Shown: positions 1,236 through 36,580, counted from the stretch's first letter. The stretch: DNA of 64,000 bases from an uncultured Acidobacteriota bacterium (GCA_963730095.1 CAVSQJ010000001.1:689599-753598), one strand, 5' to 3'. Translations and numbers: made by a program. Notes: generated by a model not told the origin, from the sequence alone.

Positions 1236-1574
1236 ATGGGCCTGACCAACACCGCGCCCGACCTGCTGCCGGGCACGCTCGATCTGCTGATCCTCCGACT
1301 CCTGGCGCGCGACGCGCTGCACGGATACGCCATGGCGCAGCGACTCAAGGTCGTGTCGCAGGACGTGCTGCAGGTCGGCGAGAGCTCGCTGTACCCGGCG
1401 CTCCAGCGCCTGCTCGCGAGCGGGTGGGTGACCGCGGAGTGGGGCGCGTCGGAGAACAACCGGCGCGCGCGTTTCTACACCATCACCGCAGCGGGCAGAA
1501 AACGCCTGGCCGCCGAGCGTGCGGAGTTCGAGCGGATCGCCGGCGCGATCGCGCGCGTGCTCCAGTTAGCGTGA
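1236..1574 (+). CDS. PadR family transcriptional regulator (acidobacterial PadR subtype)
   Basis: [61 protein letters not shown] is a typical PadR winged helix. It lies 7 nt upstream of the permease gene. Confidence 0.9.
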   Translation: MGLTNTAPDLLPGTLDLLILRLLARDALHGYAMAQRLKVVSQDVLQVGESSLYPALQRLLASGWVTAEWGASENNRRARFYTITAAGRKRLAAERAEFERIAGAIARVLQLA

Positions 1575-1581
1575 GCGCGCA

Positions 1582-4239
1582 ATGAAGCTCCTGCGTCGTC
1601 TCGCTCGATGGCCGTGGCGGCGCCAGGACGCCGCGCTCGCGGAAGAGATCGAGTACCACCGCGCGCAGATTCAGGCCGACCTCGAACGGCACGGCACGCC
1701 GGCGGCTGAGGCGGCCGCCGTCAGCCGGCGCGCGATGGGCAACCTCACGCTGGCTCGCGAGGACGCGCGCGAAGTCTGGATTGTCTCCTGGGCCGATCGC
1801 GTGTGGCGCGATGCGAAGCACGGCGTGCGCGGCCTGCGCCGCGAGCCGACGTTCGCGCTCACGACAATCATCACGCTTGCGCTCGGCGTGACCGCGACGA
1901 CCGCCGTGTTCAGCGTCGTCGACGCCGAGCTGTGGCGGCCGCTGCCGTTTCCGCGGCCCGAACAGCTCGTCGCGATCTACTCGCATGGCCCGTCGTCTCG
2001 CACGCTGGCCGATGGGCACACCATGGCCGACTTGCAGGAGTGGCGGACGAGCGCGCCCGCGTTCTCCGGCATCGCGGCGTCGGGCGACACGACGCGCCGC
2101 GTGCTCCAACTCGACACCGCCGAGTCCGTCGTTGTGGACGAGGTCACGTCGAACTATTTCGCCCTGCTGGGCAAGGCGCCGATTGCGGGCCGGACGTTTA
2201 CCGAGGTCGATGCCGGTCCGCGCGAGGCCGTGCTCACCGACCGCGCCTGGCGCCGTCTCTTCAATGGCGACGCGTCGGTCGTCGGCCGATCGTTCGCGCT
2301 CGACGGCCAGCCGACGACGATTGCCGGCATCGTGACTGCCGATGACGTCCTCGGCCCGGATCCCGATCTCTTCATCGCCATCTCCGATCGCCCGCCGGGC
2401 GGCGCGGTCGCGGGGGCGTCGGTGTTCGGTGTGATCGGCAGGCTGCGCCCGGGCGTGAGCGTCGAGGCGGCGAGGTCCCAACTGCAGGCCCTCACGACGC
2501 GACGCACGGCCGCGTCCTCGGGCTCCGTGCCGCACACGATCGTGATCGAGGACTTGCGGACGTACTACACCGGCTCGAGCTGGCATCCGCTCGTCTTTTT
2601 TCTCGGCGCGTCCCTGGTCGTGCTGCTGCTGAGCGCGGTGAACGCGGCGACGCTGCTGCTCGCGCGGGCCTCGCGGCGGACGCGCGAGTTCGCCCTGCGA
2701 GGCGCGCTAGGCGGCGGCAGCAGCGCGCTGGCGCGCCAGCTCGTCGTCGAAGGCGCCCTGCTCGCGATCCCCGCGGGCGCGCTCGGGCTGTTGCTTGCGG
2801 GCTGGGCGGTCCGTGCCGTCACGACGGCGCTTCCCGAGCGTCTTCTGCAGCACGGCACGCGCATTCCCGTCGACACGCGCGCCGCGGCATTTGCGGTCGT
2901 GGTGACGATGGCGACGACGGTGGTGTTCGCGCTTGCGCCGATCGCGTTCGCTCGGCGCATCAATCTATCGGGCGCGCTTGGACAGGGTGAGCGGAGCGGC
3001 CAGTCGGCCGCGGCAGGGCGTGCGCGCCTCGCGCTCGTCACCGTGCAAATCGCGCTGACGATGATGTTGCTCTTCGGCGCGGGAATTTTCGTGAAGAGCT
3101 TCGCGGCGCTCACGCACGTGCCGCTCGGGTTCGATCCGGCGAGCGCGATCTCGCTGCGCGTGTCGCTCAGCGGCCCGCGCTATTCAAGCGAGGGGGCCAT
3201 TCGCGACTATGCCCAGCAGCTGCTCGAGGGCGCGCGCGCCGTGCCCGGCGTGCAGCAGGCCGCGATCGGCACGAGCTCGCCGCTCGGCAGCGGTCCGCTC
3301 ATCCGCTCCGTCGCGCGGGACCTCCCGCGGCCGGCGGCCGGCAACGAGCCGCGCGCGATTCTCCGCGCGGTCGATGCGGGCTACTTTCGCACGCTGGGCA
3401 TCCGCCTCGTGCATGGCCGCGAGTTCACGCCTGAAGATACGGCCGCCGCGCCGCGTGTGGCGATCGTCAACGAAGCGCTTGCGCGCCAGATATTTGGCGA
3501 CGCGAGCCCGCTGGGCCGCGCGCTCGAGTTCGTTGCGCGGTCCGGGCGTTGGGCCTCCCAGGTCGATTCCGCGGTCATCGTCGGCGTCGCGTCCAACGTC
3601 AAGGAAGTGGGACTGAACGAGGTCGAGTTCGGAGACGTGTACCTGCCCTTTGCGCAGCTCCCATCGCCGTCAATCGAGCTCGTCGCGCGAACTGGCGTGC
3701 CGCCGCTCGGCGTGGCGGACGCGCTGCGGCAGCGCGCCGCGCGCGTCGATCCGGCGATGCCCGTCACGAGCCTCACCACGTTCGATACACGCGTGATCAG
3801 GGCGCTGCAGGGCGACCGGTTCAATCTGATTCTCATCGGCAGCTTCGCCGGCCTGGCGCTGCTGCTCGCCGCGATCGGGATCTACGGCGCCGTCGCGTAC
3901 CACGTGCAGGCGCGCACGCGCGAGTTCGGCGTCCGCCTCGCGCTTGGCGCGCGGCCGGCGCGACTGGTCGCCGCGGCGCTCTGGCAGAGCGCGCGGCTGG
4001 GCCTCGTCGGCGCCGCGCTTGGCCTGACCGGAACGCTCGCCCTCGCCGTGCCGCTTGGCAACGCCCTCTACCTCGTGCCCGGCGACCACGAGGGCTTGCT
4101 CTACGGCGTGAGCACCACCGACCCGGCGATGCTGGCGCTGGCTGGTCTTGGCATCGTGTTGATGGCTCTCGCGGCGGGCGCCTTCCCGGCACGGCGCGTG
4201 GCGCGCGTCGATCCCGTCCTCGCCTTGAGGCAGCAGTAG
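1582..4239 (+). CDS. ADOP-type duplicated MacB/FtsX permease with N-terminal helical prefix
   Basis: 885 aa. Order: prefix (EEIEYHRAQIQADLERHGTPAAEA), TM, large periplasmic domain, FtsX TM block, second periplasmic domain, second FtsX block. C-terminus is ARRVARVDPVLALRQQ. Confidence 0.9.
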   Translation: MKLLRRLARWPWRRQDAALAEEIEYHRAQIQADLERHGTPAAEAAAVSRRAMGNLTLAREDAREVWIVSWADRVWRDAKHGVRGLRREPTFALTTIITLALGVTATTAVFSVVDAELWRPLPFPRPEQLVAIYSHGPSSRTLADGHTMADLQEWRTSAPAFSGIAASGDTTRRVLQLDTAESVVVDEVTSNYFALLGKAPIAGRTFTEVDAGPREAVLTDRAWRRLFNGDASVVGRSFALDGQPTTIAGIVTADDVLGPDPDLFIAISDRPPGGAVAGASVFGVIGRLRPGVSVEAARSQLQALTTRRTAASSGSVPHTIVIEDLRTYYTGSSWHPLVFFLGASLVVLLLSAVNAATLLLARASRRTREFALRGALGGGSSALARQLVVEGALLAIPAGALGLLLAGWAVRAVTTALPERLLQHGTRIPVDTRAAAFAVVVTMATTVVFALAPIAFARRINLSGALGQGERSGQSAAAGRARLALVTVQIALTMMLLFGAGIFVKSFAALTHVPLGFDPASAISLRVSLSGPRYSSEGAIRDYAQQLLEGARAVPGVQQAAIGTSSPLGSGPLIRSVARDLPRPAAGNEPRAILRAVDAGYFRTLGIRLVHGREFTPEDTAAAPRVAIVNEALARQIFGDASPLGRALEFVARSGRWASQVDSAVIVGVASNVKEVGLNEVEFGDVYLPFAQLPSPSIELVARTGVPPLGVADALRQRAARVDPAMPVTSLTTFDTRVIRALQGDRFNLILIGSFAGLALLLAAIGIYGAVAYHVQARTREFGVRLALGARPARLVAAALWQSARLGLVGAALGLTGTLALAVPLGNALYLVPGDHEGLLYGVSTTDPAMLALAGLGIVLMALAAGAFPARRVARVDPVLALRQQ

Positions 4240-9694: not shown

Positions 9695-12373
9695 CTAGTC
9701 CTGTCGAAGCGCGGTCAGCGGATCGACGGAGAGTGCGCGTCGCGCAGGCACGTAGGCTGCGAGGATGGCCATGACGGCGAGCGTGCCCGCCACGATGGCG
9801 CGCGTGGGCACGTCCGCGGCGCTGACGCCGATGAGCAGACTCTGCAGCAGGCGCCCGACCCCGGCGGCGCCCGCCAGTCCGAGCGCCACGCCGGCGACGA
9901 GCAGCAACGCGGCCTGACCCAGCACGAGCGCGAGCACGCGATGCCGTGGCGCGCCGAGCGCCACCCGCAAGCCGATCTCGCGCGTGCGTTGGGCGACGGC
10001 ATACGCGAGCACGCCATACAGCCCGATCGCCGCGAGCAGCAGCGCGATCACCCCGAGGATCGTTCCGAGCAGCGCGGCCGCGCGACGCGTGAACAGCGCG
10101 GCGTCCGTATATCCGGCCAGCGTGACGACCAGATCGGTCGGCACCGCGGGATTGAGCTCGCGCACTGCGCGCCGTACGTCCGGCAGGATCGAGGGCGCGT
10201 CGCCGGCGGTTCGGATGTGCGCGGCAAAGCCAGTGCTGGGCACGTAGTGCTGGCGCATCGGCACCCAGAAGTAGGGCGTGGCTGGCTCCGACACTTCCGC
10301 GACCTTGATGTCGCGCGCGACGCCGACGATCGTGATCGGCGCGCCCCACCCGGTGAAGCGCCGCCCGATCGGATCCGCGCCCGCGAAATACCTTGACGCG
10401 AACGTGTGATTGACGGTCGCGACGAGTGGCGCGCTGGCATCATCGCGCTCGGTGAAATCGCGACCGCCCAGGAGCGGGATTTTCATCGTGCCGAAGTACC
10501 CGGGCGAGACCATGTTGCGATAGATCTTCATGTTCTCGCCGGGCTGCGGGACGTACCCGTCGACGTCGAGCGTTTCCCACGAGCCCAGCGAGAATCCGAG
10601 CGGGACGTCCTCGGCGAAGCTCACGGTCTCGACGCCCGGCAGGAGGCGCAGGCGTTCGCCAAGGCGATCCTGGAAGGCGAGTCCGCCGTCGCGCTCGTAC
10701 CCGGACGATCCGAGATCGAATCCCACGAGCAGCACGCCCCGCGCGTCGAAGCCGGGATCGACGGCGCGCGCGTTCTGAAAGGTGCGCAGCAGCAAGCCGC
10801 AGCCGACGAGCGCCATCACCGCCAGCATCAGCTCGACGATGACGAAGCCGTTACGGAGCCAGCGCGCCCGCGGCCCAGGCGTCGACGCGCGCGAAGCCGT
10901 CAGGGCCTCCGCGACGCGCACGCGACGGGCCGCGAGCGCGGGCATCACGCCGAAGAGCAGGGCGACGAAGAGCGACAGACCGCCGGCGAACGCGAGCGCG
11001 GGCAGATCGATCCCGCCGATGAATGCGATTGGCAGCTCGCTTGCCGGCAGCAGGGCGATGAAGCCGCGTGAGGCCCATGCGGCCACGAGGACGCCGCCCG
11101 CACCGCCGAGCGCGGCCAAGAGCGCCGCCTCGACGAGCAATTGCCGCACGATCCGGCCGCGCGTCGCGCCCACCGCGAGCCGCACGGCCAGCTCGCGATC
11201 GCGACCGATCGCCTGCGCGAGCAACAGGCTCGAGAGGTTGGCGCTGACGATGATCAACACCGCCGCGCCGAGGCCGAGGAGCGCGACGAGCAACGGACCG
11301 AGATCGTGCTGCGCGCCGTACGGGGCGTCGACGAACGGCAGCGCCGCCGCGCGAACGTCAGCGTTGCTGTCGGGATGCTCGGCCGCGAGTTGACGGGCGA
11401 TGGACGCCACGTCCTCGTTGGCGAGCGCGACGTTCGTGCCCGGCCGCAAACGCCCGAGCATCTTGAGCGGACGACTCTCGCGATTCGACAGCCAGTCACC
11501 GCTCTGGCTGAGCGTCTGTTCCATCATCACGGGCACATACACGTCGAAGGCGAGGCCCGTGATCGTCCCGCGAAACGCGCGCGGCACGACGCCGACGACG
11601 GTAAGGTTGCGCCGATTGAGCCGAACCGTCGCGCCGATCGCGTCCGGCCGGCGCTGGAATTGCCGCTCCCAGAGTCCTTCGCTGATCACGGCGACCGGGA
11701 CGCCGCCCGGCCGTTCCTGCTGTTCGTCGGCGGAAAAGAAGCGTCCGGCCGCGGGCGCAAGACGCAGGACGTCGAAGTAGTTGCCCGAGACGAACAGCGC
11801 CCATACGCGCTCCGATCCATCGTCGGGCCCGAGGCGCAACGGCCTGTCGTTGAAGGCGAGCAGACCGTCGAAGGCGCGCGATCGATCGCGCACGTCGCGA
11901 TAGTCGAGCCAGGAAGAATCGATGTACGTGCCGGCCGGCGTGACGGACTCGACGGCGACGATGCGGCCCGCGGCCGGGACGCCGGGCAGCGGATTGAGCA
12001 GCACCTCGTTCATCCAGCCGAAGGCCGCGGTCGTCGCGCCGATGCCGAGGGCCAGCGACAGCGCGGCGACGGCCGACACGCCTGGATGGCGACGCAGTAC
12101 CCGAATGCCGTACCGCGCGTCCTGGGCGAGGGCATCGACGATCGGGAGGCCGCGACGATCGCGCACCGCCTCCTTCACGCTCTCGACGCCGCCGAATCTC
12201 ACGAGCGCGGCCCGTCGCGCGTCGTCCGGGGACATGCCGGCGTGCACGTTGTCGTCGATCTGGAGCTGCAGGTGGCTCTCGAGCTCCGCGGCGAGGTCCG
12301 CGTCGCGGTCGTGCGCACCGAGAGCGACCGAGACGCGTGCGATCCAGGCGCGCAGCCGGCCGAGCGGAGTCAT
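9695..12373 (-). CDS. ADOP-type duplicated MacB/FtsX permease with helical prefix
   Basis: Start taken at MTPLGRLRAW, which forms an ATGA overlap with the PadR stop. Prefix is ELESHLQLQIDDNVHAGMSPDDARRAALVRFGG. Two FtsX blocks; ends SVDPLTALRQD. Confidence 0.9.
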   Translation of the reverse strand: MTPLGRLRAWIARVSVALGAHDRDADLAAELESHLQLQIDDNVHAGMSPDDARRAALVRFGGVESVKEAVRDRRGLPIVDALAQDARYGIRVLRRHPGVSAVAALSLALGIGATTAAFGWMNEVLLNPLPGVPAAGRIVAVESVTPAGTYIDSSWLDYRDVRDRSRAFDGLLAFNDRPLRLGPDDGSERVWALFVSGNYFDVLRLAPAAGRFFSADEQQERPGGVPVAVISEGLWERQFQRRPDAIGATVRLNRRNLTVVGVVPRAFRGTITGLAFDVYVPVMMEQTLSQSGDWLSNRESRPLKMLGRLRPGTNVALANEDVASIARQLAAEHPDSNADVRAAALPFVDAPYGAQHDLGPLLVALLGLGAAVLIIVSANLSSLLLAQAIGRDRELAVRLAVGATRGRIVRQLLVEAALLAALGGAGGVLVAAWASRGFIALLPASELPIAFIGGIDLPALAFAGGLSLFVALLFGVMPALAARRVRVAEALTASRASTPGPRARWLRNGFVIVELMLAVMALVGCGLLLRTFQNARAVDPGFDARGVLLVGFDLGSSGYERDGGLAFQDRLGERLRLLPGVETVSFAEDVPLGFSLGSWETLDVDGYVPQPGENMKIYRNMVSPGYFGTMKIPLLGGRDFTERDDASAPLVATVNHTFASRYFAGADPIGRRFTGWGAPITIVGVARDIKVAEVSEPATPYFWVPMRQHYVPSTGFAAHIRTAGDAPSILPDVRRAVRELNPAVPTDLVVTLAGYTDAALFTRRAAALLGTILGVIALLLAAIGLYGVLAYAVAQRTREIGLRVALGAPRHRVLALVLGQAALLLVAGVALGLAGAAGVGRLLQSLLIGVSAADVPTRAIVAGTLAVMAILAAYVPARRALSVDPLTALRQD

Positions 12374-24778: not shown

Positions 24779-24843
24779 ACGAGAAAATGTCGCGGACACC
24801 GCGCCTGCGAGCGTGCAGGCGCGATGTCCGGTGACGAGCGTGC

Positions 24844-26443: not shown

Positions 26444-26556
26444 ATGAGATCCTCCGGGGCCGCAGGGAAGCGGTGGCCGTACCGGCGGATCGTGCCGTGG
26501 CGTCGTGACCAATCAGTGACGTTGATGTCGCTTCGACGTAAATCTGGAGGGCCGCG

Positions 26557-26871: not shown

Positions 26872-26874
26872 GCG

Positions 26875-27024: not shown

Positions 27025-27180
27025 CGTCCGAGTCCCCTCAGACCCGATTCAGTGGGTCGCCGCTTGGGACTGCACGAGCCGTGCCCGAAGATCCGGCGCG
27101 TTGAGCCGCGCTGGAAGGAAGCCGGATGCCTACTCTGGGAAGCGGGCGGGCCACTTCGGTCGAGGCGTGTGCCAGCGGCG

Positions 27181-28035: not shown

Positions 28036-28120
28036 AGGTGCGCGCCCGCGGAGTCATCCGCGCGTTTGCCGTGTGCTGGGTGAGAGGCCAGTGTACCGGA
28101 TTCCGGCGCCGGCGGCGTCG

Positions 28121-30715
28121 TCAGCTGTCGCGAAGAATGCGGGCGGGATCGAGCCCGGCGGCCCGCCGTGCCGGGCCCCAGCACGCCGCGGCGGCGACGG
28201 CCACGAGCGTGACGGGAACGATCGCGAGCGTTGCCGGATCGGTGGGACTCACGGCGAAGAGCACGGCGCGGAGCAGCCGCGCGGTCAGCAAGGCCGCGCC
28301 GAGTCCGACGCCGACGCCCGCGAGCACGAGGCTCAATCCGCGCGAAAGCACGAGGCGCCGGATCGCGGCCGGATCGCCGCCGAGCGCCAGCCGCACGCCG
28401 ATGTCTCGCGCGTGCTGCTGGACGAAGTGCGCCATCACGCCGTAGATGCCGACGACGGACAGCACGAGTGCGGTGAGTGCGAACATCCCGATCAGCGTGC
28501 CGAGGTACGTCGGCTTGGTGATCGAATCGGCGACGAGATCGTCGCCCGTCGCGATGTCGGAGATCGCGAGCCCAGGATCGAGCGCGCGCACGGTTTGCTG
28601 CAAGGCGAGCGAGAGTGACGCCGGATCGACGGCCGTGCGCAGCACGAAGTACGCGCTTGGCAGGTCCTCGAGCGGGAAGTACACCGTGCCGTCCGGCTCG
28701 GCCTCCAGCCCTGTCCACTTCACGTCGTCGACGACGCCGACGACGGTCGTCCAGGGACAGGACGTGCAGCCGCCACTGTGCAATCGCCGGCCGATGACGT
28801 CCTCGCCGGGAAAAAAACGATTCGCCCAGGCGCGGTCGACGACGATGACGTCATCGGCGAGCGAGTGCGAGTCGAGCAGTCGGCCGCGCTCGAGGCGCAG
28901 GCCGACGGTCTTGAAGAAGTCCGGAGACACGCCGACCCAGGTGCAGATCGGCTGATTCTGGCCGACGGGCGCCGGATGATCTTCGAGATCGAAATTGTTC
29001 TGCTGGCCGGCGTCGTCCGGCGGCCGGCTGTCGGCGAGCGCGGCCGACGTCACGCCCGGCAGCGCGGCCAGCCGCTCGACGGATCGCGTCCAGAAATCCG
29101 CGCGGCCGGTGTCCTTGGCGTAGGCGGGGCCGGTGAGCTGGACGGCGGCGGTGAGCAGATGCGACGTGTCGACGCCGACGGGTACGTGCCGGAGATGGTC
29201 GAGGCTCGAGAGCACGAGTGTCGCAGCGATGATGAGCGGCGTCGCGAGCGCGAACTCGAGCGCGACCAGCACGCGCCGCAACCGGCGCGCGGCGGGCGCG
29301 TCGCTGTTCGATCGGCCGCTCGCCGCGAGCGCCTGGTCGATGCGCAGCCGCGAGCCGTGGATTGCCGGGACGATGCCGATCACGAGACCGCTCGAGGCGG
29401 CGAGGATCGCCAGCCACCCGAGCACGGGACCCGACAACCGGACTTCGTCGATCCGCGGGATGTCGCTCGCGCCGTAGCTCCTCAGCAGCTGAATCGCGCC
29501 CGCGGCCACGGCGAGCGCGATGAGCGCCGCCGCAATCGTGAGCACGCCGGACTCTGCCGCGATCGTCTGCAGCAGCCGGACCCGCGACGCACCGAGCGCC
29601 CCGCGAATCGCCAACTCGCGACTGCGGCCGAGCGCGCGCGCGACGAGCAGGTTGACGGCGTTCGCGCACGCGATGAGCAGGACGCACGCCACGGCCGCCA
29701 GCGCGACGAACAGCGTCGAGCCGACGTCGCGGACGACGCGCGACTTGAGATCCTGCAGGCCCCAGGTGGCCTTTTCGTCCTGATATGACGATCGCCAGAT
29801 CGGAAAGAGCCGCCGGTTGGTCGCGCGCAAGGTGTCGAGAGCGGCAGCGCGGGAGATCCCGGGCCGCAGGCGACCCAGCGCCATCGTGAAAAACGGACCC
29901 TTGCGCGTCGGCGTCGGCCAGTGCGCGGCGGTGAAGAGCGAGATGTCGTGCTCGAGCGGGCCGCTCGGGCCGGCGAGCACCCCGACGATCGTCGCGCTCC
30001 CGCCGTCGATCGTCAGCGTTCGGCCGACGATCATGGGATCGGCTCCGAAGCGCTTCGCCCAGTACGGTGTCGTCAGCACGACGAGGGCGCCGCCGCGCGC
30101 ATCATCCGACGGGTCGAACAGTCGGCCGAGCGCGGGCTTCTGGCCGAGGAGCGGGAAATACGATCCGGTGACGTCCTTCGCGTTCACGCGCTCCGATTCC
30201 CCGTTCGTCGTCACGGTGACGCGATTCGTCTGGTAGCCGGCGATGCCGCTGAGGGCGGGATGATCGGCCTCGAGCGCGCGGTAGTCGACGACGGAGAAGC
30301 GGAAGTGAAAGGGCGGCGTGTCGGTGTAGATCCACGCGAGCGAGCCGGCGTCGGCGTAGGGCAGAGGGCTCACGAGCACCGCGCGGATCACGCTCACCAT
30401 CGCGGTCGTTGCGCCCAGGCCGATGCCGACCGTGAGCACGATCGTCGCGGCCACGATTGGCGCGCGCGCGAGGCTGCGGAGGCTATAGAGGACGTCCTGC
30501 CCCAGGTGCGTGACGCTCGATCGCGCCTCGTCCCACGTGTGGCTCATGCGCGCTCCCGCCAGGTGAAACGCGAACCCGACCCGCTGCCGGCGCAGCCATC
30601 GGGCGGCAGCGCGGTCGCCGTCCTGCCGGCGGTGCAGTTCGTAGAGCTCGGCCAGCTCGCTTTCGATCACGCGACGGTCCGCGTCGCTCACGAGCCACCG
30701 CGTCAGCCAGCGCAT
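28121..30715 (-). CDS. ADOP-type duplicated MacB/FtsX permease (different prefix type)
   Basis: 864 aa. Prefix is MRWLTRWLVSDADRRVIESELAELYELHRRQ. Two FtsX blocks; ends LDPARILRDS. The start is 1 nt after the PadR stop. Confidence 0.9.
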   Translation of the reverse strand: MRWLTRWLVSDADRRVIESELAELYELHRRQDGDRAAARWLRRQRVGFAFHLAGARMSHTWDEARSSVTHLGQDVLYSLRSLARAPIVAATIVLTVGIGLGATTAMVSVIRAVLVSPLPYADAGSLAWIYTDTPPFHFRFSVVDYRALEADHPALSGIAGYQTNRVTVTTNGESERVNAKDVTGSYFPLLGQKPALGRLFDPSDDARGGALVVLTTPYWAKRFGADPMIVGRTLTIDGGSATIVGVLAGPSGPLEHDISLFTAAHWPTPTRKGPFFTMALGRLRPGISRAAALDTLRATNRRLFPIWRSSYQDEKATWGLQDLKSRVVRDVGSTLFVALAAVACVLLIACANAVNLLVARALGRSRELAIRGALGASRVRLLQTIAAESGVLTIAAALIALAVAAGAIQLLRSYGASDIPRIDEVRLSGPVLGWLAILAASSGLVIGIVPAIHGSRLRIDQALAASGRSNSDAPAARRLRRVLVALEFALATPLIIAATLVLSSLDHLRHVPVGVDTSHLLTAAVQLTGPAYAKDTGRADFWTRSVERLAALPGVTSAALADSRPPDDAGQQNNFDLEDHPAPVGQNQPICTWVGVSPDFFKTVGLRLERGRLLDSHSLADDVIVVDRAWANRFFPGEDVIGRRLHSGGCTSCPWTTVVGVVDDVKWTGLEAEPDGTVYFPLEDLPSAYFVLRTAVDPASLSLALQQTVRALDPGLAISDIATGDDLVADSITKPTYLGTLIGMFALTALVLSVVGIYGVMAHFVQQHARDIGVRLALGGDPAAIRRLVLSRGLSLVLAGVGVGLGAALLTARLLRAVLFAVSPTDPATLAIVPVTLVAVAAAACWGPARRAAGLDPARILRDS

Positions 30716-30716
30716 C

Positions 30717-31040
30717 TCAGCTCCTGGGCGTTTTGAGCAGCGGCGCGAGGCCGCGCCACAGACGCGCGTGCTCGACCTGGTGCGCCTTGACGACGGCGAG
30801 GCCGCGCCTGGTCAGCTTGACGTAGCGGCGCGTGCGCCCGGCGTCGGGCGCGTCCAGCCGCGAGGCCACGAGGCCTTTGGCTTCGAGGCGGCTCAGGGCG
30901 ATGAAGACCGCCGCGGGCGCGACGCGCCGGCCCGCGCGCTTCTCGAGCTCGAGGAGCAGCGGCACGCTGTAGGTCTCGCCGCGCTGGCGCAGCATCGCGA
31001 CGAGGACCTGGAGCTCGAACGTCTGGAGCGACTTCGGCAT
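30717..31040 (-). CDS. PadR-like transcriptional regulator (short subtype)
   Basis: 107 aa: FELQVLVAMLRQRGETYSVPLLLELEKRAGRRVAPAAVFIALSRLEAKGLVASRL..RRYVKLTRRG. Confidence 0.8.
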   Translation of the reverse strand: MPKSLQTFELQVLVAMLRQRGETYSVPLLLELEKRAGRRVAPAAVFIALSRLEAKGLVASRLDAPDAGRTRRYVKLTRRGLAVVKAHQVEHARLWRGLAPLLKTPRS

Positions 31041-31081
31041 CGGCGGACTATACCACTAGCAGTGTTAGTCTGAGTCCGCCG
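31041..31081. promoter_or_regulatory. 9-bp stem (CGGCGGACT/AGTCCGCCG) with a 23-nt loop containing CACTAGCAGTG, abutting the PadR-like start codon
   Basis: Read directly from the sequence. It lies between the GH127 stop (31103) and the PadR-like start (31040), so it could act as a terminator, an operator or an RBS-occluding hairpin. Confidence 0.35.
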
Positions 31082-31102
31082 GCGATTGGTTAGCCGTCCT
31101 CG

Positions 31103-33454
31103 CTAGAACGCCCTGATCGCCCGGACCCGCCGCGGGAAGTCCTTGTCGTCGCTGTGCTGGCGGCCGTTGTCGGCGAAATCGATGTGCGCCGCCATGTCGG
31201 TGGTCTGCTGCGACGAGGACCAGTAGGTGAAGTTGTCGGCGATGCCGCGGCCGGCGAAATCGCCGAGGCCGGTGGCCTTGAGCGCGCGGTACATCTGGGC
31301 GAGCTCGTCGCGCGACGGCAGGAACCAGCCGCCGACGCCGTTGAGCGTGTATTCGGCGCAGAGCCGGGCGGCGGTGCCCGCCTCCGCGCAGGTCGCGAGC
31401 ATGTCCTTGGTGTTCTCGCGGCCGGCGCCGATGGCCGTGCCGCGCGCGCCGCTCGTGGGTGTGCGGAAGCAGCCCCACCTGGCGCCGGCGCTCTGATCGA
31501 CGGGCGCGGCCTCGAGGTAGCGCCAGCCGTCGGTCGCGTACTTCGGGTTGTCGTAGAAGATCAGGCCGCCCGCCGGGCCGACGTCGCCGATCGCGTACTC
31601 CGCGTGCGAGAGCCACACGGACATTTCACCGGCGCCGCGGTTGGCCCATTGGTAGTAGGGAATGAGCGTCACGGGCGCCGCCGCCAGCGTCGGGTTGGCG
31701 ACGCGACGGGCCGTCGTGCGAATCACCGTCGTGCCGTCGCGCGCCGGATCGACCGCGGCGACGAGCGGCGTATCGTGGCTCACGAGCAGATCGAGCACGC
31801 GCTTGTCGCCGGCGTCCGGCCACTCGGCGCAGTACACGATCGGCCCGCGCTCGATCGCCATCCGGCCCTTGTCCGCTCGCACGCGCGAGTCGGCGACGAC
31901 GCGCCGCACGTCCATCGGAAAGTCGACCGCGATGACGTCGCCGCTCGTCCAGGCCCGATCGATCGACACGTAGCCCATCGCGTCCGGCGCGGCGCCGACC
32001 GGCCGCCCGTTGACCGACACGGTCGCGCGCCGGTCGCTCGGTGTGCCGTAGCGATAGAGCGCCCCGGGCGCAGGCTGGTTGCGCGTCCAGCCCGGCATGC
32101 GCAGCTTGATCGCGCCCTTGACGTCGTGCTTGGCCGACATCGTGATCTTCGTTGCGCCGCCCCACGGCATGTCGCTCTCGACCTGGAGCGTGACCGGCTG
32201 ACCGCCGATCGCGAACGTCGCCTCGCTCGAGACGTACAGATTCACGTACACGGCGTCGCTCTTGTCCTGAGCGTAGATGAACCCCGGCATGCTCGCGAGA
32301 AACCGCACGAGGTTGGGCGGACAACACTCGAGCGAGGCGCGCGCCCAGCGGACGTCGCGCCCGTCGCCCGCGCTCGCGAGCCGGTTGACGTAGAAGAAGC
32401 GATCGCCGGACGCCGAGACGCCGTCGATCGCGTTGTTGTACATCCCGCGCTCCATGACGTCGATGTACTTGCTGTCGCCCGTCGCGAGGAACATCCGATG
32501 GTTGAACGTGATGAACATCAGCACCGCGCACGTTTCCGAGTAGGCCGAGATGTTCGGCAGCGCGTACGCCTCGCCGAAGCCTTCGTTGCCCGTCGAGCCC
32601 ACGCCGCCGGTGATGTACATCTTTCGCGTCGCCGCGTCCGTCCACATGCGCTCCGCGACCTTGAAGTACTCCGGCAGCCCGGTCAGCACGCCGACGTCGG
32701 CGACTGACACCATGAGCGAGCAGCAATTCACGGCGTGGCCGACCGCCTCGCTCTGCTCGAGCACCGGCGTGTACGACTGATTGTGGCGGCTGCGGCCGAC
32801 CGAGCTCTCGAGCCCGCGGATGTCGAGGTAGTGCTTCGCCAGATCGAGATGCTTCTTGTCTCGCGTGATGCGATAGAGCTGCAGGCAGTTGATCGCGTCG
32901 CGCTCGCCGCCGTTGAACGGCGGGTTGCGGACGCGGAAATCTTCGTAGAGCGCGTCGGCGGATGCGATCGCCGGATCGAGCAGGTCCCGCCTGCCGGTCG
33001 CCTGAAACCATGCCGCCGCGACCTCGAAGCCGCCGTTGCCGCGCTCGGGACGCGCCGCGAGCGAGCCAACGCTCGAGTCGACGATCTTCTGGAGCGCCGC
33101 ATCCGGGTGCGTCTCGAGCGAGTAGATCGCCGCCTCGAGCACGTTCCCGCTGAGCGCGCGGCCGTTCTCCGTCAGCTTCTGGACCTCGAACGGAATCGTC
33201 ACCGTCGCGTTGGTCGCGACCTTCGGCTGCCAGAACGCGTCGCGGAGCGCCACCTCGGCGTATCGCTTCGCGCGAATCGAGTAGTCGGCGACCGGCGTGT
33301 ACGCGCGGCTGCCAATCTGGACGCTCCCCGCGCTGGCCGACTGCGCCTCCGCGTGCGCCACCGGAAGGCGCGCCGCACACGCCAGGGCGCCCGCGGCCGC
33401 CGACGCCGTCTTCAGAAACTCCCGTCGAGCGATGGGATCTGCCATGGCCGCCAT
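31103..33454 (-). CDS. Tat-exported GH127 (DUF1680, beta-L-arabinofuranosidase family) fused to a C-terminal DUF1566/Lcl-like domain
   Basis: Tat signal ARREFLKTASAAAGA. The GH127-like core includes ..HAVNCCSLM..ETCAVLMF..LECCPPN. The last ~150 aa (GGLIFYDNPKYATDGWRYLEAAP..GGWFLPSRDELAQMY..YWSSS) is DUF1566-like. Confidence 0.8.
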   Translation of the reverse strand: MAAMADPIARREFLKTASAAAGALACAARLPVAHAEAQSASAGSVQIGSRAYTPVADYSIRAKRYAEVALRDAFWQPKVATNATVTIPFEVQKLTENGRALSGNVLEAAIYSLETHPDAALQKIVDSSVGSLAARPERGNGGFEVAAAWFQATGRRDLLDPAIASADALYEDFRVRNPPFNGGERDAINCLQLYRITRDKKHLDLAKHYLDIRGLESSVGRSRHNQSYTPVLEQSEAVGHAVNCCSLMVSVADVGVLTGLPEYFKVAERMWTDAATRKMYITGGVGSTGNEGFGEAYALPNISAYSETCAVLMFITFNHRMFLATGDSKYIDVMERGMYNNAIDGVSASGDRFFYVNRLASAGDGRDVRWARASLECCPPNLVRFLASMPGFIYAQDKSDAVYVNLYVSSEATFAIGGQPVTLQVESDMPWGGATKITMSAKHDVKGAIKLRMPGWTRNQPAPGALYRYGTPSDRRATVSVNGRPVGAAPDAMGYVSIDRAWTSGDVIAVDFPMDVRRVVADSRVRADKGRMAIERGPIVYCAEWPDAGDKRVLDLLVSHDTPLVAAVDPARDGTTVIRTTARRVANPTLAAAPVTLIPYYQWANRGAGEMSVWLSHAEYAIGDVGPAGGLIFYDNPKYATDGWRYLEAAPVDQSAGARWGCFRTPTSGARGTAIGAGRENTKDMLATCAEAGTAARLCAEYTLNGVGGWFLPSRDELAQMYRALKATGLGDFAGRGIADNFTYWSSSQQTTDMAAHIDFADNGRQHSDDKDFPRRVRAIRAF

Positions 33455-33532
33455 TCTAAGACCGTTCCCGCCAACCAACCGCGGGCCGGGATCGTCTCAG
33501 GTAGATGATCTAGTGGTCGGAGGCGCGAGCGC

Positions 33533-33886
33533 ATGCCGAAACGAGGAACGCCGCCCATCGAGGGCGATCTGCTGCAGGGCACGCTGGACCTGCTCATCCT
33601 GAGGACCGTCGCGCTCGGCGCGGCCCACGGCCACGCGATCGCGCACGCCATCGAGCGCCAGTCCGACGCGGTCCTCCAGGTCGAGCACGGCTCGCTCTAC
33701 CCGGCGCTGCACCGGCTCGAAGACCGCGGCTGGATCGCGTCGTTCTGGGGCACGTCGGAGAACAATCGCCGCGCGCGCTACTACCGCCTGACGCCGGCCG
33801 GCCGTCGCCAGCTCGCGCAGCAGACGTCACGGTGGGACGTGCTCGTCGGCGCCATCAACCGCGTGCTCCGACCGACGGGAGGCTAG
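33533..33886 (+). CDS. PadR family transcriptional regulator
   Basis: [64 protein letters not shown]. The stop directly abuts the permease GTG start. Confidence 0.9.
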
Positions 33887-36580
33887 GTGGGCGTCTCGCG
33901 CTTCTGGCGTCGCGCGAGGTGGGACGATGAACGTCGCGCCGAGCTCGAGGACTACGTCGCGCGCGAAACCGAGGACAACCTCGCGCGCGGCCTCAGTCCG
34001 GACGAAGCGCACGCGCGGGCCCTTCGCAAGCTTGGCAACGCCACGCTCGTGCGTGAGGAGATCTTCGAGATGAATACGATCAACTGGCTCGAGTCCGTCT
34101 GGCAGGACGTGAGGTACGGCGCGCGTGTGCTCCGCCGCAGTCCCGCGTTCGCCATTGTCGCGCTCCTCTCGCTCGCGCTCGGCATCGGCGCCAACGCGGC
34201 GATTTTTCAGCTGCTCGACATCGTGCGGCTGCGAACGCTCCCGCTCCACCGCCCCGAAGAGATCTTCGAGGTCCGCATCGGCCCGAACAAGACTGGTCGC
34301 ACAGGCTCGTTCCAGGGCACGAGGCCGTCGCTGACCAATCCGATCTGGGAGCAGATTCGCGATCAGCAGCAGTCGTTTTCGGACCTCGTCGCGTACGGCT
34401 CAGCCACGTTCGATCTCTCATCGGGCGGCGAAGCGCGGCCGGCGGAGGGCCTGTTCGTCAGCGGCCGCTTTTTCCATCTCCTCGAAGGACGCGCCGAGCG
34501 CGGGCGGCTGATCGAAGCCGGCGACGATGTGCGCGGATGTGGATCGCCGGGAGCGGTGATCAGCGCCGCGTTCTGGCAGAAGGAATTCGGCGGGGCAGGC
34601 GACATCGTCGGCCGCGCGCTCAGGCTCGACGGCCAGCCTGTGCCAATTATCGGCGTCGTCAATCGCGGGTTCGCCGGAATCGAGGTCGGCCGCCGCACGG
34701 ATGCGTATCTGCCGATTTGCGCCCGGCCACTCCTCAAGCGAAGCGATCCAGGGATCGACGCGCGCGCCGTCTGGTGGCTCGCGGCGTTCGGACGCCTCGA
34801 GCCGGGCACGACGATCGAGCAAGCGAAGGCCGAGCTGGCGTCGCGGTCGCCGGCGATCTTCCAGTCGACGGTCGCGCCCAACTACGCTCCAGAGGACGCG
34901 AAAGGCTACCAGGCCTTTCAGCTCTCGGCGTTTCCCGCCGGCACGGGCGTGTCCGGGCTGCGCGCCCGCTACAGCGATTCTCTGACGGTGTTGCTCTCGA
35001 TTGCCGGGCTCGTGCTGCTGATCGCGTGCGCGAACCTGGCGAACCTCATGCTCGCGCGCGGGGCGGCACGGGCGCGCGAGATTTCGCTGCGATTGGCGAT
35101 TGGCGCGTCGCGTCGGCGCGTGTTCCGGCAGCTGATCGCCGAGAGCCTGCTGCTCGCCGGTCTCGGCGCGGCGGCCGGCATCTGGCTGGCCCTCGCGCTG
35201 AGCCGTCTGCTCGTTGCGATCCTCGTGAGCGACGGCGGCCCGTGGACGCTCGATCTCGCGATCGACTGGCGCCTGGCGGGCTTCACGGTCGCGCTCGCGG
35301 TCGTCGCGTGCCTGCTGTTCGGCCTGTGGCCCGCCTGGCGCGCCACGCGCACCCAGCCCAGCGAGGTGCTGAGGCGATCGGGCCGAGGCCTGACGGCGGA
35401 TCGCGGCCGCTTCATCGTGCGTCGCGTACTGGTCGTGTCGCAGATCGCGATCTCGCTCGTCCTCGTGGTCGGCGCGCTCCTCTTCGTCGGCACGCTGGAG
35501 AACCTGACGACGGCCGATTTCGGGTTCTCCGATCGCGACGTGCTCACCGCGAATCTCGACTTGCGCCCGGCGGGCGTCGCGCCGGGCGCGATGCTGGTGT
35601 TTCAGCAGCGCCTGCTCGATCGGCTGCGCGCGGTGCCGGACGTGGCGCAGGCATCGTCGGCCGCGATCGTGCCGGTGAGCGGGTCGGGCTGGAATGAGAC
35701 GGTCATCATCGACGGCGAGAAGAAGGACGGGCATCCCGACGCGAATCGCGTGAGCGCGTCATTCTTCCAGGCGCTCGCCGTGCCGTTCATCTCGGGCCGC
35801 ACCTTCGACGCGCGTGACAAAGTGGGCGCGCCGCCGGTCGCCATCGTGAATGAGGCGTTCGCGGCGAAGTACCTCGGCGCCAATCCGATCGGGCGGTCGT
35901 TCAGGCTCGAGGTCGGCCCGGGCGATCCGGATCCGACCTTCGAGGTCATCGGCGTCGTGCACAACACGAAGTATCGCGATCTGCGCGAGCCGCTCGGACC
36001 GATCATGTACTTCGCGGACACTCAGGAGGCCGAGCCGTCGCCGTTCATCACGGTGGTCGTCAGGGCGCGGCACGATTCGGCGGCGCTCCGCGCGAGCCTG
36101 ATGCGCGCGGTCGCCGACGTGCATCCGGCGATCACGGTGACACTGCAGTCGATGACCGAACAGATCCAGAGCACGCTGCTGCGCGAACGGCTGATGGCCG
36201 CGCTCTCGGGCGGCTTTGCGGCGCTCGCCGTCGTGCTTGCGGCCGTCGGCCTCTACGGCCTGATGGCGTACGGCGTGGCGCGGCGACGCAACGAGATCGG
36301 CGTGCGCGTGGCGCTTGGCGCCACGCGCGGCCGCATCGTCCTGATGATCGTTCGCGAGACGGCGATCCTCGTGGTCGCCGGCGTCGTCGCCGGCGTCGGG
36401 TTGACGATCTGGTCGGGCCGCGCGGCCGAGGCGCTGCTCTATGGCCTCACCGGATCCGATCCGCGAATGCTGGCGATCGGCGTCCTCGCGCTCACGGCCG
36501 TCGCCGTCATCGCGAGCGTGGTGCCCGCGCAGCGGGCCGCGCGGCTGGATCCGACGACGGCGCTGCGCGAAGAAACGTAG
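33887..36580 (+). CDS. ADOP-type duplicated MacB/FtsX permease with helical prefix
   Basis: 897 aa. Prefix is ELEDYVARETEDNLARGLSPDEAHARALRKLGN. Two FtsX blocks; ends LDPTTALREET. Confidence 0.9.
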   Translation: MGVSRFWRRARWDDERRAELEDYVARETEDNLARGLSPDEAHARALRKLGNATLVREEIFEMNTINWLESVWQDVRYGARVLRRSPAFAIVALLSLALGIGANAAIFQLLDIVRLRTLPLHRPEEIFEVRIGPNKTGRTGSFQGTRPSLTNPIWEQIRDQQQSFSDLVAYGSATFDLSSGGEARPAEGLFVSGRFFHLLEGRAERGRLIEAGDDVRGCGSPGAVISAAFWQKEFGGAGDIVGRALRLDGQPVPIIGVVNRGFAGIEVGRRTDAYLPICARPLLKRSDPGIDARAVWWLAAFGRLEPGTTIEQAKAELASRSPAIFQSTVAPNYAPEDAKGYQAFQLSAFPAGTGVSGLRARYSDSLTVLLSIAGLVLLIACANLANLMLARGAARAREISLRLAIGASRRRVFRQLIAESLLLAGLGAAAGIWLALALSRLLVAILVSDGGPWTLDLAIDWRLAGFTVALAVVACLLFGLWPAWRATRTQPSEVLRRSGRGLTADRGRFIVRRVLVVSQIAISLVLVVGALLFVGTLENLTTADFGFSDRDVLTANLDLRPAGVAPGAMLVFQQRLLDRLRAVPDVAQASSAAIVPVSGSGWNETVIIDGEKKDGHPDANRVSASFFQALAVPFISGRTFDARDKVGAPPVAIVNEAFAAKYLGANPIGRSFRLEVGPGDPDPTFEVIGVVHNTKYRDLREPLGPIMYFADTQEAEPSPFITVVVRARHDSAALRASLMRAVADVHPAITVTLQSMTEQIQSTLLRERLMAALSGGFAALAVVLAAVGLYGLMAYGVARRRNEIGVRVALGATRGRIVLMIVRETAILVVAGVVAGVGLTIWSGRAAEALLYGLTGSDPRMLAIGVLALTAVAVIASVVPAQRAARLDPTTALREET

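Follow-up and report, generated by a model that had tools for sequence, protein, structure and literature searches.

PadR-paired, prefix-bearing ADOP permeases in an acidobacterial locus as candidate autoregulated modules

Few membrane-protein families are as expanded in soil Acidobacteriota as ADOP, whose genes are also frequent in soil metagenomes. To our knowledge, neither a substrate nor an energy source nor a regulator has been assigned to any ADOP. The NCBIfam definitions of ADOP (TIGR03434) and padR_acidobact (TIGR03433) describe large, clustered paralogous families in which PadR genes lie beside permeases, usually without an adjacent ATPase, and they are silent on mechanism. Clusters of ADOP genes have been reported in Psychroflexus torquis, where they are expressed (PMC3914696). 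On the regulatory side, Ravi et al. (2024) described in silico a HAAS-PadR dyad, including HAAS domains fused to FtsX/MacB_PCD and always beside PadR; fusions to FtsX-like TM regions with MacB/PCD were a conserved theme, and the dyad was proposed as an alternative to two-component signalling (PMC11237479). In Listeria monocytogenes the PadR repressor LftR and LftS, a small HAAS-superfamily (DUF1048) protein, are encoded in a two-gene operon, and the inducer relieves repression of a transporter only when LftS is present (PMC4517056; bioRxiv 10.1101/2023.07.27.550809). The locus described here pairs a PadR with a permease in a similar way; LftS, however, is a soluble standalone protein unfused to any permease, and its target LieAB is encoded elsewhere and is of a different ABC type.

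Several transport systems also invite comparison. In BceAB-BceRS of the Firmicutes, a structural relative, the FtsX-type permease has a large extracytoplasmic domain and serves both as resistance transporter and as self-inducing sensor. BceB, however, spans the membrane with 10 TM helices, has a single extracellular domain and passes its signal to a histidine kinase, and the ATPase BceA is always part of the operon; we take the likeness as a functional analogy only. YbbP of YbbAP-TesA, with 10 TM helices, holds two FtsX modules in one chain and came out as the best PDB fold match. Its ATPase YbbA is encoded next to it, whereas no such partner is linked in the window, by which we mean the whole 64-kb stretch of DNA analysed here. 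MacB of MacAB-TolC can be aligned with these permeases in the coupling helix and in the periplasmic domain, yet its NBD is fused and its partners are MacA and TolC, neither of which is linked in the window.

The window contains six intact ADOP-type permeases of 804-897 aa, in which the MacB_PCD and FtsX domains each occur twice, and five PadR genes.

1236-1574, + strand: padR1, 112 aa; Pfam PadR 71.6 bits, TIGR03433 137.7 bits
1582-4239, + strand: perm1, ADOP permease, 885 aa; TIGR03434 702.7 bits; prefix encoded at 1582-1803
9695-12373, - strand: perm2, ADOP permease, 892 aa; TIGR03434 810.2 bits; prefix encoded at 12128-12373
12370-12711, - strand: padR2, 113 aa; TIGR03433 131.0 bits
15738-18332, - strand: perm3, divergent ADOP-like permease, 864 aa; TIGR03434 582.9 bits; extension encoded at 18132-18332
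18329-18685, - strand: padR3, 118 aa; TIGR03433 114.6 bits
20781-23195, + strand: perm4, ADOP permease without prefix and without PadR, 804 aa; TIGR03434 776.3 bits
28121-30715, - strand: perm5, ADOP permease, 864 aa; TIGR03434 735.3 bits; divergent prefix encoded at 30503-30715
30717-31040, - strand: padR5, divergent PadR, 107 aa; Pfam PadR 34.5 bits, TIGR03433 33.8 bits
33533-33886, + strand: padR6, 117 aa; Pfam PadR 74.8 bits, TIGR03433 150.5 bits
33887-36580, + strand: perm6, ADOP permease with GTG start, 897 aa; TIGR03434 823.8 bits; prefix encoded at 33887-34099

The original prediction had called six ADOP-type duplicated permeases with acidobacterial PadR partners. All six reading frames were recovered, with the low-coordinate ends confirmed and the permease starts corrected, and the families match NCBIfam ADOP and padR_acidobact. 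The proposed HMMER check with these models bore this out for five permeases and four PadRs and fell short for perm3 and padR5: ADOP scores range from 583 to 824 bits with only perm3 below the curated cutoff of 622.3, and padR1, padR2, padR3 and padR6 exceed the padR_acidobact cutoff of 101.8 bits while padR5 does not, a point on which the locus departs from the family definitions. perm3 is ADOP-like and not a certified ADOP member; its architecture is nonetheless intact. All five PadRs exceed the Pfam PadR cutoff of 27 bits, and padR5 is a PadR by Pfam, yet of another subclass than padR_acidobact. The ~110-aa PadRs consist of a winged helix-turn-helix and one C-terminal helix, with no extra ligand domain. 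Pairwise identities among the permeases of 28-34% agree with the predicted old divergence of the paralogs. In the collinear contig L001 the perm5 ortholog is retained and perm6 has an ortholog of 84% identity with the identical 0-nt junction to its PadR gene; L001 lacks the 5.8-kb indel segment that contains perm4. padR2 shares 88% identity with its counterpart PadR in the orthologous L003 pair. The window near the modules is rich in secreted peptidases and glycosidases (M28, Zn-peptidase, GH127, S9), and the flanking genes differ for each permease paralog.

Five PadR-permease pairs with essentially no spacer had been claimed, and base-by-base reading of the junctions agrees: ATGA overlaps join padR2 to perm2 (12370-12373) and padR3 to perm3 (18329-18332), a TAG is followed directly by GTG at padR6/perm6 (33886/33887, 0 nt between), and the gaps are 1 nt at padR5/perm5 (30715/30717) and 7 nt at padR1/perm1 (1574/1582). 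The five pairs are tightly, and probably translationally, coupled.

All five PadR-linked permeases carry an N-terminal cytoplasmic prefix of about 70-85 aa. PadR-less perm4 has none: its ADOP match begins at residue 4, and the N-terminal block is missing from the alignment. Going by the sequences, this prefix (NF038403 perm_prefix_1 or a related form) appears to be the link between PadR and permease, one that the original prediction overlooked. The perm_prefix_1 model scores 60.7 bits on perm2, 42.5 bits on perm6 and 28.8 bits on perm1 (33.8 bits on the N-terminus alone), and it matches 19 of 23 prefixes. The perm5 prefix aligns with perm_prefix_2-type sequences and by itself matches no library model; the ~67-aa extension of perm3 likewise matches none and scores 19 bits on a prefix HMM built in this analysis. 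HAAS is the sole Pfam family matched by more than one prefix (4 of 23 at E <= 1), its best score being 19.7 bits (PF22564, E = 1.1e-3, cutoff 27 bits) on the N-terminus of perm2, where no other Pfam family scores better. In the AlphaFold2 model of perm2 the prefix forms helices at residues 20-44, 49-60 and 63-73, with pLDDT up to 93 and confidence at residues 20-60; the prefix domain modelled in isolation was poor (pLDDT 66). As in the HAAS-PadR dyad, a standalone PadR adjoins a membrane protein in which a short N-terminal helical domain precedes a candidate multi-TM sensor. Here, however, the Pfam HAAS match is weak, and the GxP kink motif is not conserved in the alignment of ADOP prefixes, which read LGG or LGN.

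To place the window among its relatives, 146 further ADOP genes were classed by prefix, with L003-L089 as the independent loci. Of 52 prefix-class ADOPs in these loci, 30 have a PadR gene as their immediate upstream neighbour, as against 0 of 77 short-class ones (Fisher p = 1e-15). The remaining 22 prefix-class genes include 15 internal to tandem arrays, some of which are headed by a PadR, and 6 of the 52 are preceded by no PadR and by no other ADOP. Seven more PadR-linked ADOPs bear an unrecognised N-terminal extension. Across 24 pairs, the correlation of PadR distance is r = 0.75 with prefix distance and r = 0.44 with distance over the permease core; in partial Mantel tests the prefix correlation persists given the core (r = 0.67, p = 5e-4), while that of the core given the prefix is not significant (r = 0.05). 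The suggested check for co-divergence of PadR and permease thus came out positive for the prefix and negative for the permease body. PadR class goes with prefix class as well, since padR5 clusters with the PadR of a perm_prefix_2 ADOP in L009, its nearest relative in the sample at 36-37% identity. No conserved partner gene was found beside the PadR-permease pairs across the compared loci. As far as could be found, the rule that PadR accompanies only prefixed ADOPs, together with the ATPase-linked members described below, adds to the family definitions; the HAAS-PadR proposal, itself purely computational, is extended by a second prefix class, by operator motifs and by the co-evolution.

Every padR has a candidate palindrome between promoter and start codon, and orthologous loci retain three of the five.

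1178-1207, + strand: sigma-70-like promoter of the padR1-perm1 operon, TTGACG-18-TAGACT
1207-1227, no strand: candidate PadR1 operator, TCCCATCGT-cta-ACGATGGGA, with 9-bp arms, between the -10 element and the ribosome-binding site
12722-12740, no strand: candidate PadR2 operator, proximal, CCTATGG-N5-CCATAGG, overlapping the AGGAG ribosome-binding site
12756-12774, no strand: candidate PadR2 operator, distal, CCTATTG-N5-CAATA(T/G)G, with 1 mismatch
18689-18706, no strand: weak candidate PadR3 operator, CCCCA-gagtatct-TGGGG, with arms of just 5 bp; low confidence
31055-31069, no strand: candidate PadR5 operator, ACTAAC-act-GCTAGT, adjoining a TATAGT -10-like hexamer
33502-33512, no strand: candidate PadR6 operator, TAGAT-g-ATCTA

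The padR1 promoter is the sole promoter-like site in 1120-1260, where shuffled sequences give an expectation of 0, and it ends where the PadR1 palindrome starts. That palindrome shares its skeleton with the padR2 operator, with two symmetric base changes. The padR2-type palindrome occurs as two copies ~34 bp apart, both conserved upstream of padR2-type genes in L003, L006, L026 and L067; the two permeases behind these sites that were compared with perm2 are 35% (L067) and 41% (L006) identical to it. Within the window the padR2-type pattern has 3 matches, all at padR promoters, with 0.43 expected. The PadR5 candidate becomes a perfect palindrome in L001 (ACTAAC-atc-GTTAGT) amid diverged intergenic sequence, and the PadR6 candidate is kept there as TAGAT-a-ATCTA within a conserved block. 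At the level of DNA sequence, a different candidate palindrome for each PadR at its own promoter favours the predicted picture of individually regulated modules.

Turning to the permease body, the AlphaFold2 model of perm2 (pLDDT 89.6) shows two periplasmic domains and 8 TM helices. Among solved folds, YbbP from the ATP-driven YbbAP comes closest (E = 7e-18), although its TM-scores to the perm2 model are low, at 0.38-0.42. Every structural relative found by the fold search is ATP-driven. The ADOP major coupling helices align to those of MacB and Spr0695 and lie among the four most conserved 15-residue windows of 85 ADOPs; the C-terminal minor coupling helix falls within the top eight of the 36 prefix-bearing forms. 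In characterised transporters the major helices couple to the NBDs (PMC5985334). Domain matches, coupling helices, model and fold match all place these proteins with the type VII (MacB-type) ABC transporters, and the body would be a single-chain pseudo-dimer of the MacB/LolCDE/YbbP fold. It should be considered that the conservation of the coupling helices could be structural in cause.

An ATPase is nonetheless missing from the locus. As had been claimed, the window encodes no ABC ATPase: PF00005 has no match in its ~35 called ORFs, and tblastn over all frames of the 64 kb with a LolD query gave a best E of 1.8, while the identical query recovered genuine ABC ATPases in other loci. The sole in-gene Walker A of the window belongs to an AAA_16 regulator. 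L003-L008 likewise have no ABC ATPase within 10 kb, and an adjacent MacB-type ATPase occurs in 3 of ~87 permease-anchored loci. The notion of permeases without an ATPase holds for this locus and not for the family, because strong ADOPs elsewhere adjoin MacB-type ATPases: those in L011 and L092 score 948-998 bits on the ADOP model, and L055 and L067 also have ADOP-adjacent ATPases, the order in L067 being PadR-ADOP-ATPase-ADOP-ADOP-ADOP. These ATPases are 70-87% identical to one another and the neighbouring ADOPs 33-59%; in a second ATPase pair the figures are 85% and, for the flanking ADOPs, 39%. NBDs are always more conserved than TMDs, and the adjacent ATPases may serve just that neighbour. 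The window permeases are most likely powered by a conserved MacB-type ATPase whose gene lies elsewhere in the genome. No member of the MFP/HlyD family was found in the called ORFs of the window, nor is a TolC gene linked, so a MacAB-like exit route is not evident; an MFP adaptor, above its curated cutoff, is linked to an ADOP only in L092.

We propose, with slightly better than even confidence, that every PadR-permease pair works as a self-contained sensor-effector module that regulates itself and is powered in trans, all of its functions being predicted. A PadR dimer would bind the paralog-specific palindrome seen at or just downstream of its own operon promoter and repress it, and the permease would be co-produced with PadR by translational coupling at the overlapping or abutting stop and start codons. 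The HAAS-type helical prefix, on the cytoplasmic side of TM1, would contact PadR. Substrate engagement by the two periplasmic MacB-type domains, or cycling of the transporter, would be relayed through TM1 to the prefix, whose change would alter its hold on PadR and lead to derepression, so that each module would be induced by its own substrate. We infer this signalling step from the co-occurrence, the co-evolution and the LftR/LftS precedent. The permease would most likely be driven by a MacB-type ATPase encoded elsewhere and common to the paralogs; more speculatively, the modules probably extrude or extract compounds that act on the envelope, with six diverged periplasmic domains conferring different specificities. 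Lacking both prefix and PadR, perm4 would be regulated differently or not at all. An ADOP chain has one prefix and PadR is a dimer, a point of stoichiometry that counts against the sensor-effector reading. A bolder extension, possible but doubtful in our estimation, is that prefix-ADOPs are transporter-embedded one-component sensors reporting activity to a private PadR, and that the paralogs of a genome share one or two highly conserved hub ATPases (for instance of the 221-aa 'ADEPTGNLHS' type); a shared hub would make this a combinatorial ABC system, with one engine for dozens of individually regulated permeases.

Two other readings change what the permease does. It may export no solute and, with regulation unchanged, work by mechanotransmission as in FtsEX, LolCDE and YbbAP-TesA, activating or feeding a periplasmic hydrolase or a lipid or lipoprotein acceptor. 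This mode is frequent among type VII ABC systems (PMC5985334; PMC12646458) and would suit the top fold match to YbbP, the secreted M28, Zn-peptidase, GH127 and S9 genes adjoining the modules, and a window without a linked MFP or TolC gene. We consider it somewhat unlikely, as the neighbours vary from paralog to paralog, the pairs have no conserved partner gene across loci, and the strong ADOP encoded with an MFP adaptor in L092 points to a MacAB-like pump. Alternatively, the permeases could be truly ATPase-free, either as ligand receptors that solely control PadR or as FtsX-fold devices driven mechanically or by PMF without an ABC engine. It would be logical to read in this way a window with six paralogs and no ABC ATPase, its absence within 10 kb in L003-L008, the mere 3 of ~87 loci with an adjacent one, and a prefix that sits N-terminal to TM1, the site of the fused NBD of MacB (PMC5985334). 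Yet the coupling helices, two major and two minor, rank with the most conserved segments, all structural relatives are ATP-driven, top-scoring ADOPs are encoded beside MacB-type ATPases, once within a PadR-ADOP array, and a sensor-only permease would leave an operon with no output gene besides the sensor; we regard this reading as unlikely.

A further reading leaves transport alone and changes the regulator. It is common for repressors of the PadR family to bind ligands and to control a neighbouring transporter, and the PadRs here, like LmrR and PadR, could be ordinary repressors of an efflux gene that sense a small molecule directly, the prefix then being a structural or membrane-targeting element unrelated to PadR. 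Besides this general family behaviour, the six prefix-class ADOPs without a nearby PadR, the array-internal ADOPs that share one, and the sub-threshold HAAS match of the prefix are consistent with such an arrangement. It would, however, leave unexplained why 0 of 77 prefix-less ADOPs have an upstream PadR, why PadR divergence follows the prefix and not the permease core, and why the two classes switch together, and PadRs of ~110 aa have no extra domain for a ligand; we find it distinctly improbable.

The window contributes new members and not a new kind of system. If the sensor-effector reading is true, the role of the PadR-HAAS dyad, the independent regulation of dozens of paralogous pumps in one bacterium and the identity of the ATPase powering the 'orphan' permeases all become directly testable; for such tests this analysis names candidate operators, delimits the prefix and points to a specific family of candidate ATPases. 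Prefix-ADOP genes are a very large class, forming 35,111 clusters at 50% identity.

All six permease genes of the original prediction (perm1 to perm6, of the ADOP type) are present and intact, each with two MacB_PCD and two FtsX matches. The window has ~70% G+C, which makes ORF lists noisy; genes were picked by third-position GC and domain matches.

1582-4239, + strand: perm1, 885 aa
9695-12373, - strand: perm2, 892 aa
15738-18332, - strand: perm3, 864 aa
20781-23195, + strand: perm4, 804 aa
28121-30715, - strand: perm5, 864 aa
33887-36580, + strand: perm6, 897 aa, GTG start

The permeases match the ADOP model TIGR03434 end to end, five of the six above the curated cutoff and perm3 slightly under it (582.9 vs 622.3 bits). 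PadR genes lie ahead of five of them (pairs 1, 2, 3, 5 and 6), and the junctions are exactly as had been predicted: ATGA overlaps in pairs 2 and 3, TAG then GTG without a gap in pair 6, one base in pair 5 and seven bases in pair 1. padR1, padR2, padR3 and padR6 pass the padR_acidobact model TIGR03433, and padR5 is a divergent PadR. The paralogs are diverged and not recently duplicated, again as predicted. Permeases are 28-34% identical to one another, the four TIGR03433-type PadRs 40-55% identical among themselves and padR5 ~30% identical to the others; the window paralogs are old.

The pairing of PadR with permease had been seen at the outset, but an N-terminal prefix, carried by the five PadR-linked permeases and missing from perm4, had been overlooked. 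The ADOP model match begins at residue 70-100 in those five and at residue 4 in perm4, which in the alignment of window paralogs is without an N-terminal block of ~70-95 columns. NCBIfam perm_prefix_1 (NF038403) is matched by perm1, perm2 and perm6, and the top Pfam match of the perm2 N-terminus is HAAS (PF22564), under threshold at E = 1.1e-3. No library model matched the prefixes of perm3 and perm5; in alignment, the latter clusters with perm_prefix_2-type sequences. In the AF2 model of perm2 (pLDDT 89.6, pTM 0.83), residues 3-18, 20-44, 49-60 and 63-73 form the prefix helices, with pLDDT reaching 93, and an amphipathic helix (77-95) comes next. The model further has eight TM helices and two periplasmic domains; short helices on the cytoplasmic side span 392-400 and 797-805, and each half has a C-terminal helix (487-492 and 885-890). 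The prefix modelled alone (pLDDT 66) was too poor for a fold search. By homology with the topology of MacB, the prefix is predicted to be cytoplasmic; in MacB, the fused NBD and skirting loop occupy the place where ADOP carries the prefix (PMC5985334).

The adjacency of PadR and permease is conserved in related genomes. A search of genome contigs with perm6 returned two loci, L001 and L002, of which L001 was informative. This MAG contig, labelled Solibacteraceae, is collinear with window positions 19514-20771 and 26557-38022 at ~81% nucleotide identity and retains both pair 5 and pair 6, their junction spacings unchanged. Locus L003 holds the ortholog of pair 2 (permease 77% and PadR 88% identical) with an ATGA-type overlap. 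As a separate observation, in both genomes the perm6 start GTG directly follows the padR6 stop TAG and shares its frame (window 33884-33889; L001 8659-8664), and read-through of this stop codon would yield a PadR-permease fusion, which is probably incidental.

Across the 120 best homologs of perm2, the extension ahead of the conserved 'QDxRY' anchor is bimodal, with ~76 proteins having fewer than 30 residues and 31 having 70-99. HMMs were built here for PadR, for the prefix and for the N-terminal core and the C-terminus of ADOP, and were run on a wider sample of 80 metagenome loci and seven look-up loci; the window and L001 are excluded from the counts.

Gene upstream of each ADOP in the wider sample
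Prefix class (n = 52): PadR 30, another ADOP 15, ATPase 1, other 6
Short class, without prefix (n = 77): PadR 0, another ADOP 45, ATPase 1, other 31
Ambiguous (n = 17): PadR 7, another ADOP 8, ATPase 0, other 2

For prefix against short forms, with PadR upstream or not, Fisher's test gave p = 1e-15. The seven ambiguous PadR-linked ADOPs have an N-terminal extension that our prefix HMM did not recognise; since none of the 77 short forms follows a PadR, a prefix-less ADOP is never preceded by PadR in the sampled loci. Some arrays with PadR-less internal members carry one PadR at the array head. A profile search with the prefix matched 35,111 clusters at 50% identity; nearly all of the 150 matches listed begin by residue 10, and protein length among them goes up to ~860-910 aa.

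The original prediction called for a check of whether each PadR co-diverges with its permease, and the answer depends on which part of the permease is meant. In 24 complete pairs, the correlation of PadR distance was r = 0.75 for the prefix and r = 0.44 for the core, taken as the first 240 residues of the permease body. A partial Mantel test of PadR against prefix given core retained r = 0.67 (p = 5e-4, from a short prefix alignment and a permutation that ignores phylogeny), whereas PadR against core given prefix fell to r = 0.05, not significant. Co-divergence of PadR with the whole permease is not supported by this result: PadR tracks the prefix, not the transporter. The class of PadR also changes along with the class of prefix, the nearest relative of padR5 in the sample being a PadR that adjoins a perm_prefix_2 ADOP (36-37% identity). 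Such tracking is the pattern that would be expected if PadR and prefix touch.

Shortly upstream of each padR start lies an A/T-containing palindrome, in DNA of 70% G+C.

1207-1227: padR1 candidate operator, TCCCATCGT-cta-ACGATGGGA
12722-12740: padR2 candidate operator, proximal, CCTATGG-N5-CCATAGG
12756-12774: padR2 candidate operator, distal, a degenerate second copy
18689-18706: padR3 candidate operator, weak, CCCCA-N8-TGGGG
31055-31069: padR5 candidate operator, ACTAAC-N3-GCTAGT
33502-33512: padR6 candidate operator, TAGAT-g-ATCTA

The entire window holds only 39 comparable inverted repeats. With at most two mismatches, the padR2 pattern has three matches in the window, all at padR promoters, vs 0.43 expected, and the padR1 and padR2 sites are two symmetric substitutions apart. 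The padR1 palindrome begins at the final base of a promoter-like TTGACG-18-TAGACT. A sigma-70 scan returned nothing for padR2; on our reading, its distal operator overlaps a putative -35 element. In L001 the padR5 palindrome is perfect and the padR6 site is conserved, and the double padR2-type site is kept upstream of padR2-type genes in L003, L006, L026 and L067; the two permeases compared from these double-site loci are 35% (L067) and 41% (L006) identical to perm2. Other PadR subclasses have repeats of their own, including canonical ATATGT-N7/8-ACATAT boxes. Palindromes placed at padR promoters and conserved in orthologous loci support autorepression through paralog-specific candidate operators, to which the PadR proteins would bind.

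A third PadR subclass, with the N-terminus ...ELKKGSAELLILSL..., occurs in L037, L053, L058, L060, L071 and L079. Its members pair with ADOPs of longer N-terminal extension, which the prefix HMM recognises weakly (17-20 bits) or not at all. Of the six upstream regions, two show the canonical ATATGT-N7/8-ACATAT box near their start codon and four show ATAT-rich half-sites.

The statement that these permeases have no ATPase holds for the 64-kb window, but is better read as 'ATPase not linked'. The ABC ATPase model PF00005 matched none of the ~35 other called ORFs, and the only Walker A motif inside genes of the window sits in an AAA_16 regulator; no ABC ATPase was found in the window. Six-frame tblastn of the window with an approximate LolD query gave a best E of 1.8; the same query matched ABC ATPases in other loci and so serves as a control.

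Four lines argue that ADOP permeases would still use an ATPase: conserved contact elements, ATP-driven relatives, ADOPs with adjacent ATPases and conserved ATPase subfamilies. The major-loop motif R-x-x-E-[IL]-G-x-R-x-A-L-G-A (TM2-loop-TM3 and TM6-loop-TM7) is among the four most conserved 15-residue windows of 85 ADOPs, and the C-terminal PARRA-x-x-DP-x-x-ALR is among the top eight in 36 prefix-bearing forms. The loop motifs align to the coupling helix of MacB and Spr0695, and the NBD contacts are the major coupling helix and a C-terminal minor helix (PMC5985334). A fold search of the PDB ranked YbbP of YbbAP, which is ATP-driven (PMC12646458), best, followed by MacB, LolCDE, HrtBA and BceAB. 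Most loci have no neighbouring ATPase, but an adjacent, co-directional MacB-type ATPase is found at three of ~87 permease-anchored loci.

L011: ADOP - ATPase - NtrC-type regulator - kinase
L055: ATPase - ADOP - ADOP
L067: PadR - prefix-ADOP - ATPase - three prefix-ADOPs - one short ADOP

The permeases of L011 (998 bits) and L092 (948 bits) score higher against the ADOP model than every window paralog; in L092 an MFP adaptor is encoded as well, with a score that exceeds its curated cutoff. A type A ATPase of ~221 aa, 70-87% identical across five loci, adjoins ADOP permeases in each.

L011, 3731-4396: type A ATPase
L067, 4301-5005: type A ATPase
L090, 2237-2896: type A ATPase
L091, 10001-10666: type A ATPase
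L092, 10001-10660: type A ATPase

Its D-loop, ADEPTGNLHS, is unusual where ...LD is usual. Identity to the L011 ATPase is 77% or higher in over 120 clusters. Downstream of the type A gene, L011, L090 and L092 encode an NtrC-type regulator and a PAS kinase, making ADOP - ATPase - sigma-54 regulator - PAS kinase a recurring locus. A type B ATPase is 85% identical between L055 and L092. Both types fall within the MacB/LolD/DarD/FtsE/YbbA group and neither reached an NCBIfam equivalog cutoff. The ADOPs that adjoin them are only 33-59% identical; near-identical ATPases beside very different ADOPs would fit a promiscuous engine, a reading limited by the top-120 list being a selected sample and by the fact that NBDs are always better conserved than TMDs. 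An ABC ATPase near the L009 pair was rejected as a partner: it lies on the opposite strand, is 34-36% identical to MacB-type ATPases and is no closer to these than to unrelated ABC ATPases. From its sequence we read it as Mla-type.

The HAAS domain was defined by Ravi et al. 2024, who described its fusion to FtsX/MacB_PCD beside a PadR and proposed the HAAS-PadR dyad as an alternative to two-component systems, so the PadR-prefix-ADOP arrangement is an in-silico prediction already published (PMC11237479). The original observation is confirmed and its interpretation largely right, but not new, and the window adds further members of a known, uncharacterised kind. Psychroflexus torquis also has ADOP clusters, with abundant proteins (PMC3914696); our literature search found no experimental work on any ADOP. 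The closest experimental precedent is Listeria LftR/LftS, in which LftS, a DUF1048 protein of the HAAS superfamily according to Ravi et al. (PMC11237479), is encoded with the PadR repressor LftR (PMC4517056) and is needed for aurantimycin-induced derepression (bioRxiv 10.1101/2023.07.27.550809). Beyond what is observed directly in gene structure, junctions, domain content, palindromes, co-occurrence, co-evolution and contact-motif conservation, we infer autoregulated modules in which PadR would contact the prefix, derepression would depend on substrate and an ATPase encoded elsewhere would act in trans. Ideas on the substrates are speculative; periplasmic domains are among the least conserved ADOP regions (0.52-0.58 mean column conservation), which would fit differing specificities. 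The analysis adds a strict rule that ties PadR to the prefix, the finding on co-evolution, explicit candidate operator sequences and a family of candidate ATPases. Although this kind of system is abundant and unexplored, the window itself would be no surprise to specialists familiar with TIGR03433/03434 and with the HAAS paper.

The only prefix-less ADOP of the window, perm4, is in a variable or acquired segment, since the 5.8-kb stretch that holds it (20772-26556) is missing from the otherwise collinear L001. The segment begins directly after the stop of a gene for a receiver domain with an RsbW-like HATPase_c_2 (19944-20771, +), with GC dipping to 0.65-0.67 nearby. Besides perm4 it carries a multicopper oxidase (23192-25285, -), a fragment of a phosphoesterase and ORFs without an assignment. 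The receiver gene, 9 nt upstream of perm4, was considered as its regulator and rejected: L001 keeps it at 90% identity with no ADOP after it, and the two genes are therefore neighbours without a functional link. Within 23192-25713, the multicopper-oxidase ORF shares ~440 nt with a phosphoesterase-family ORF (24844-25713, -) that is read from the same strand in another frame; truncation of one of the two, or a frameshift, may be the cause. In other genomes, L007 1-22427 and L010 1-18439 each consist of eight to nine prefix-less ADOPs in tandem, all on the same strand, and neither PadR nor ATPase genes occur inside the stretch; L007 is from a 5.16-Mb contig.

Collinearity with L001 stops at 38022. 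At 38019-41043 (-), penicillin-amidase-like matches, to positions 89-230 and 608-647 of the Pfam model, are split between two or more ORFs, which suggests a frameshifted pseudogene or assembly errors. At 54946-56420 (+), the gene after a sortase gene encodes a protein that weakly matches an LPXTG anchor, a combination unexpected in a presumed diderm acidobacterium.
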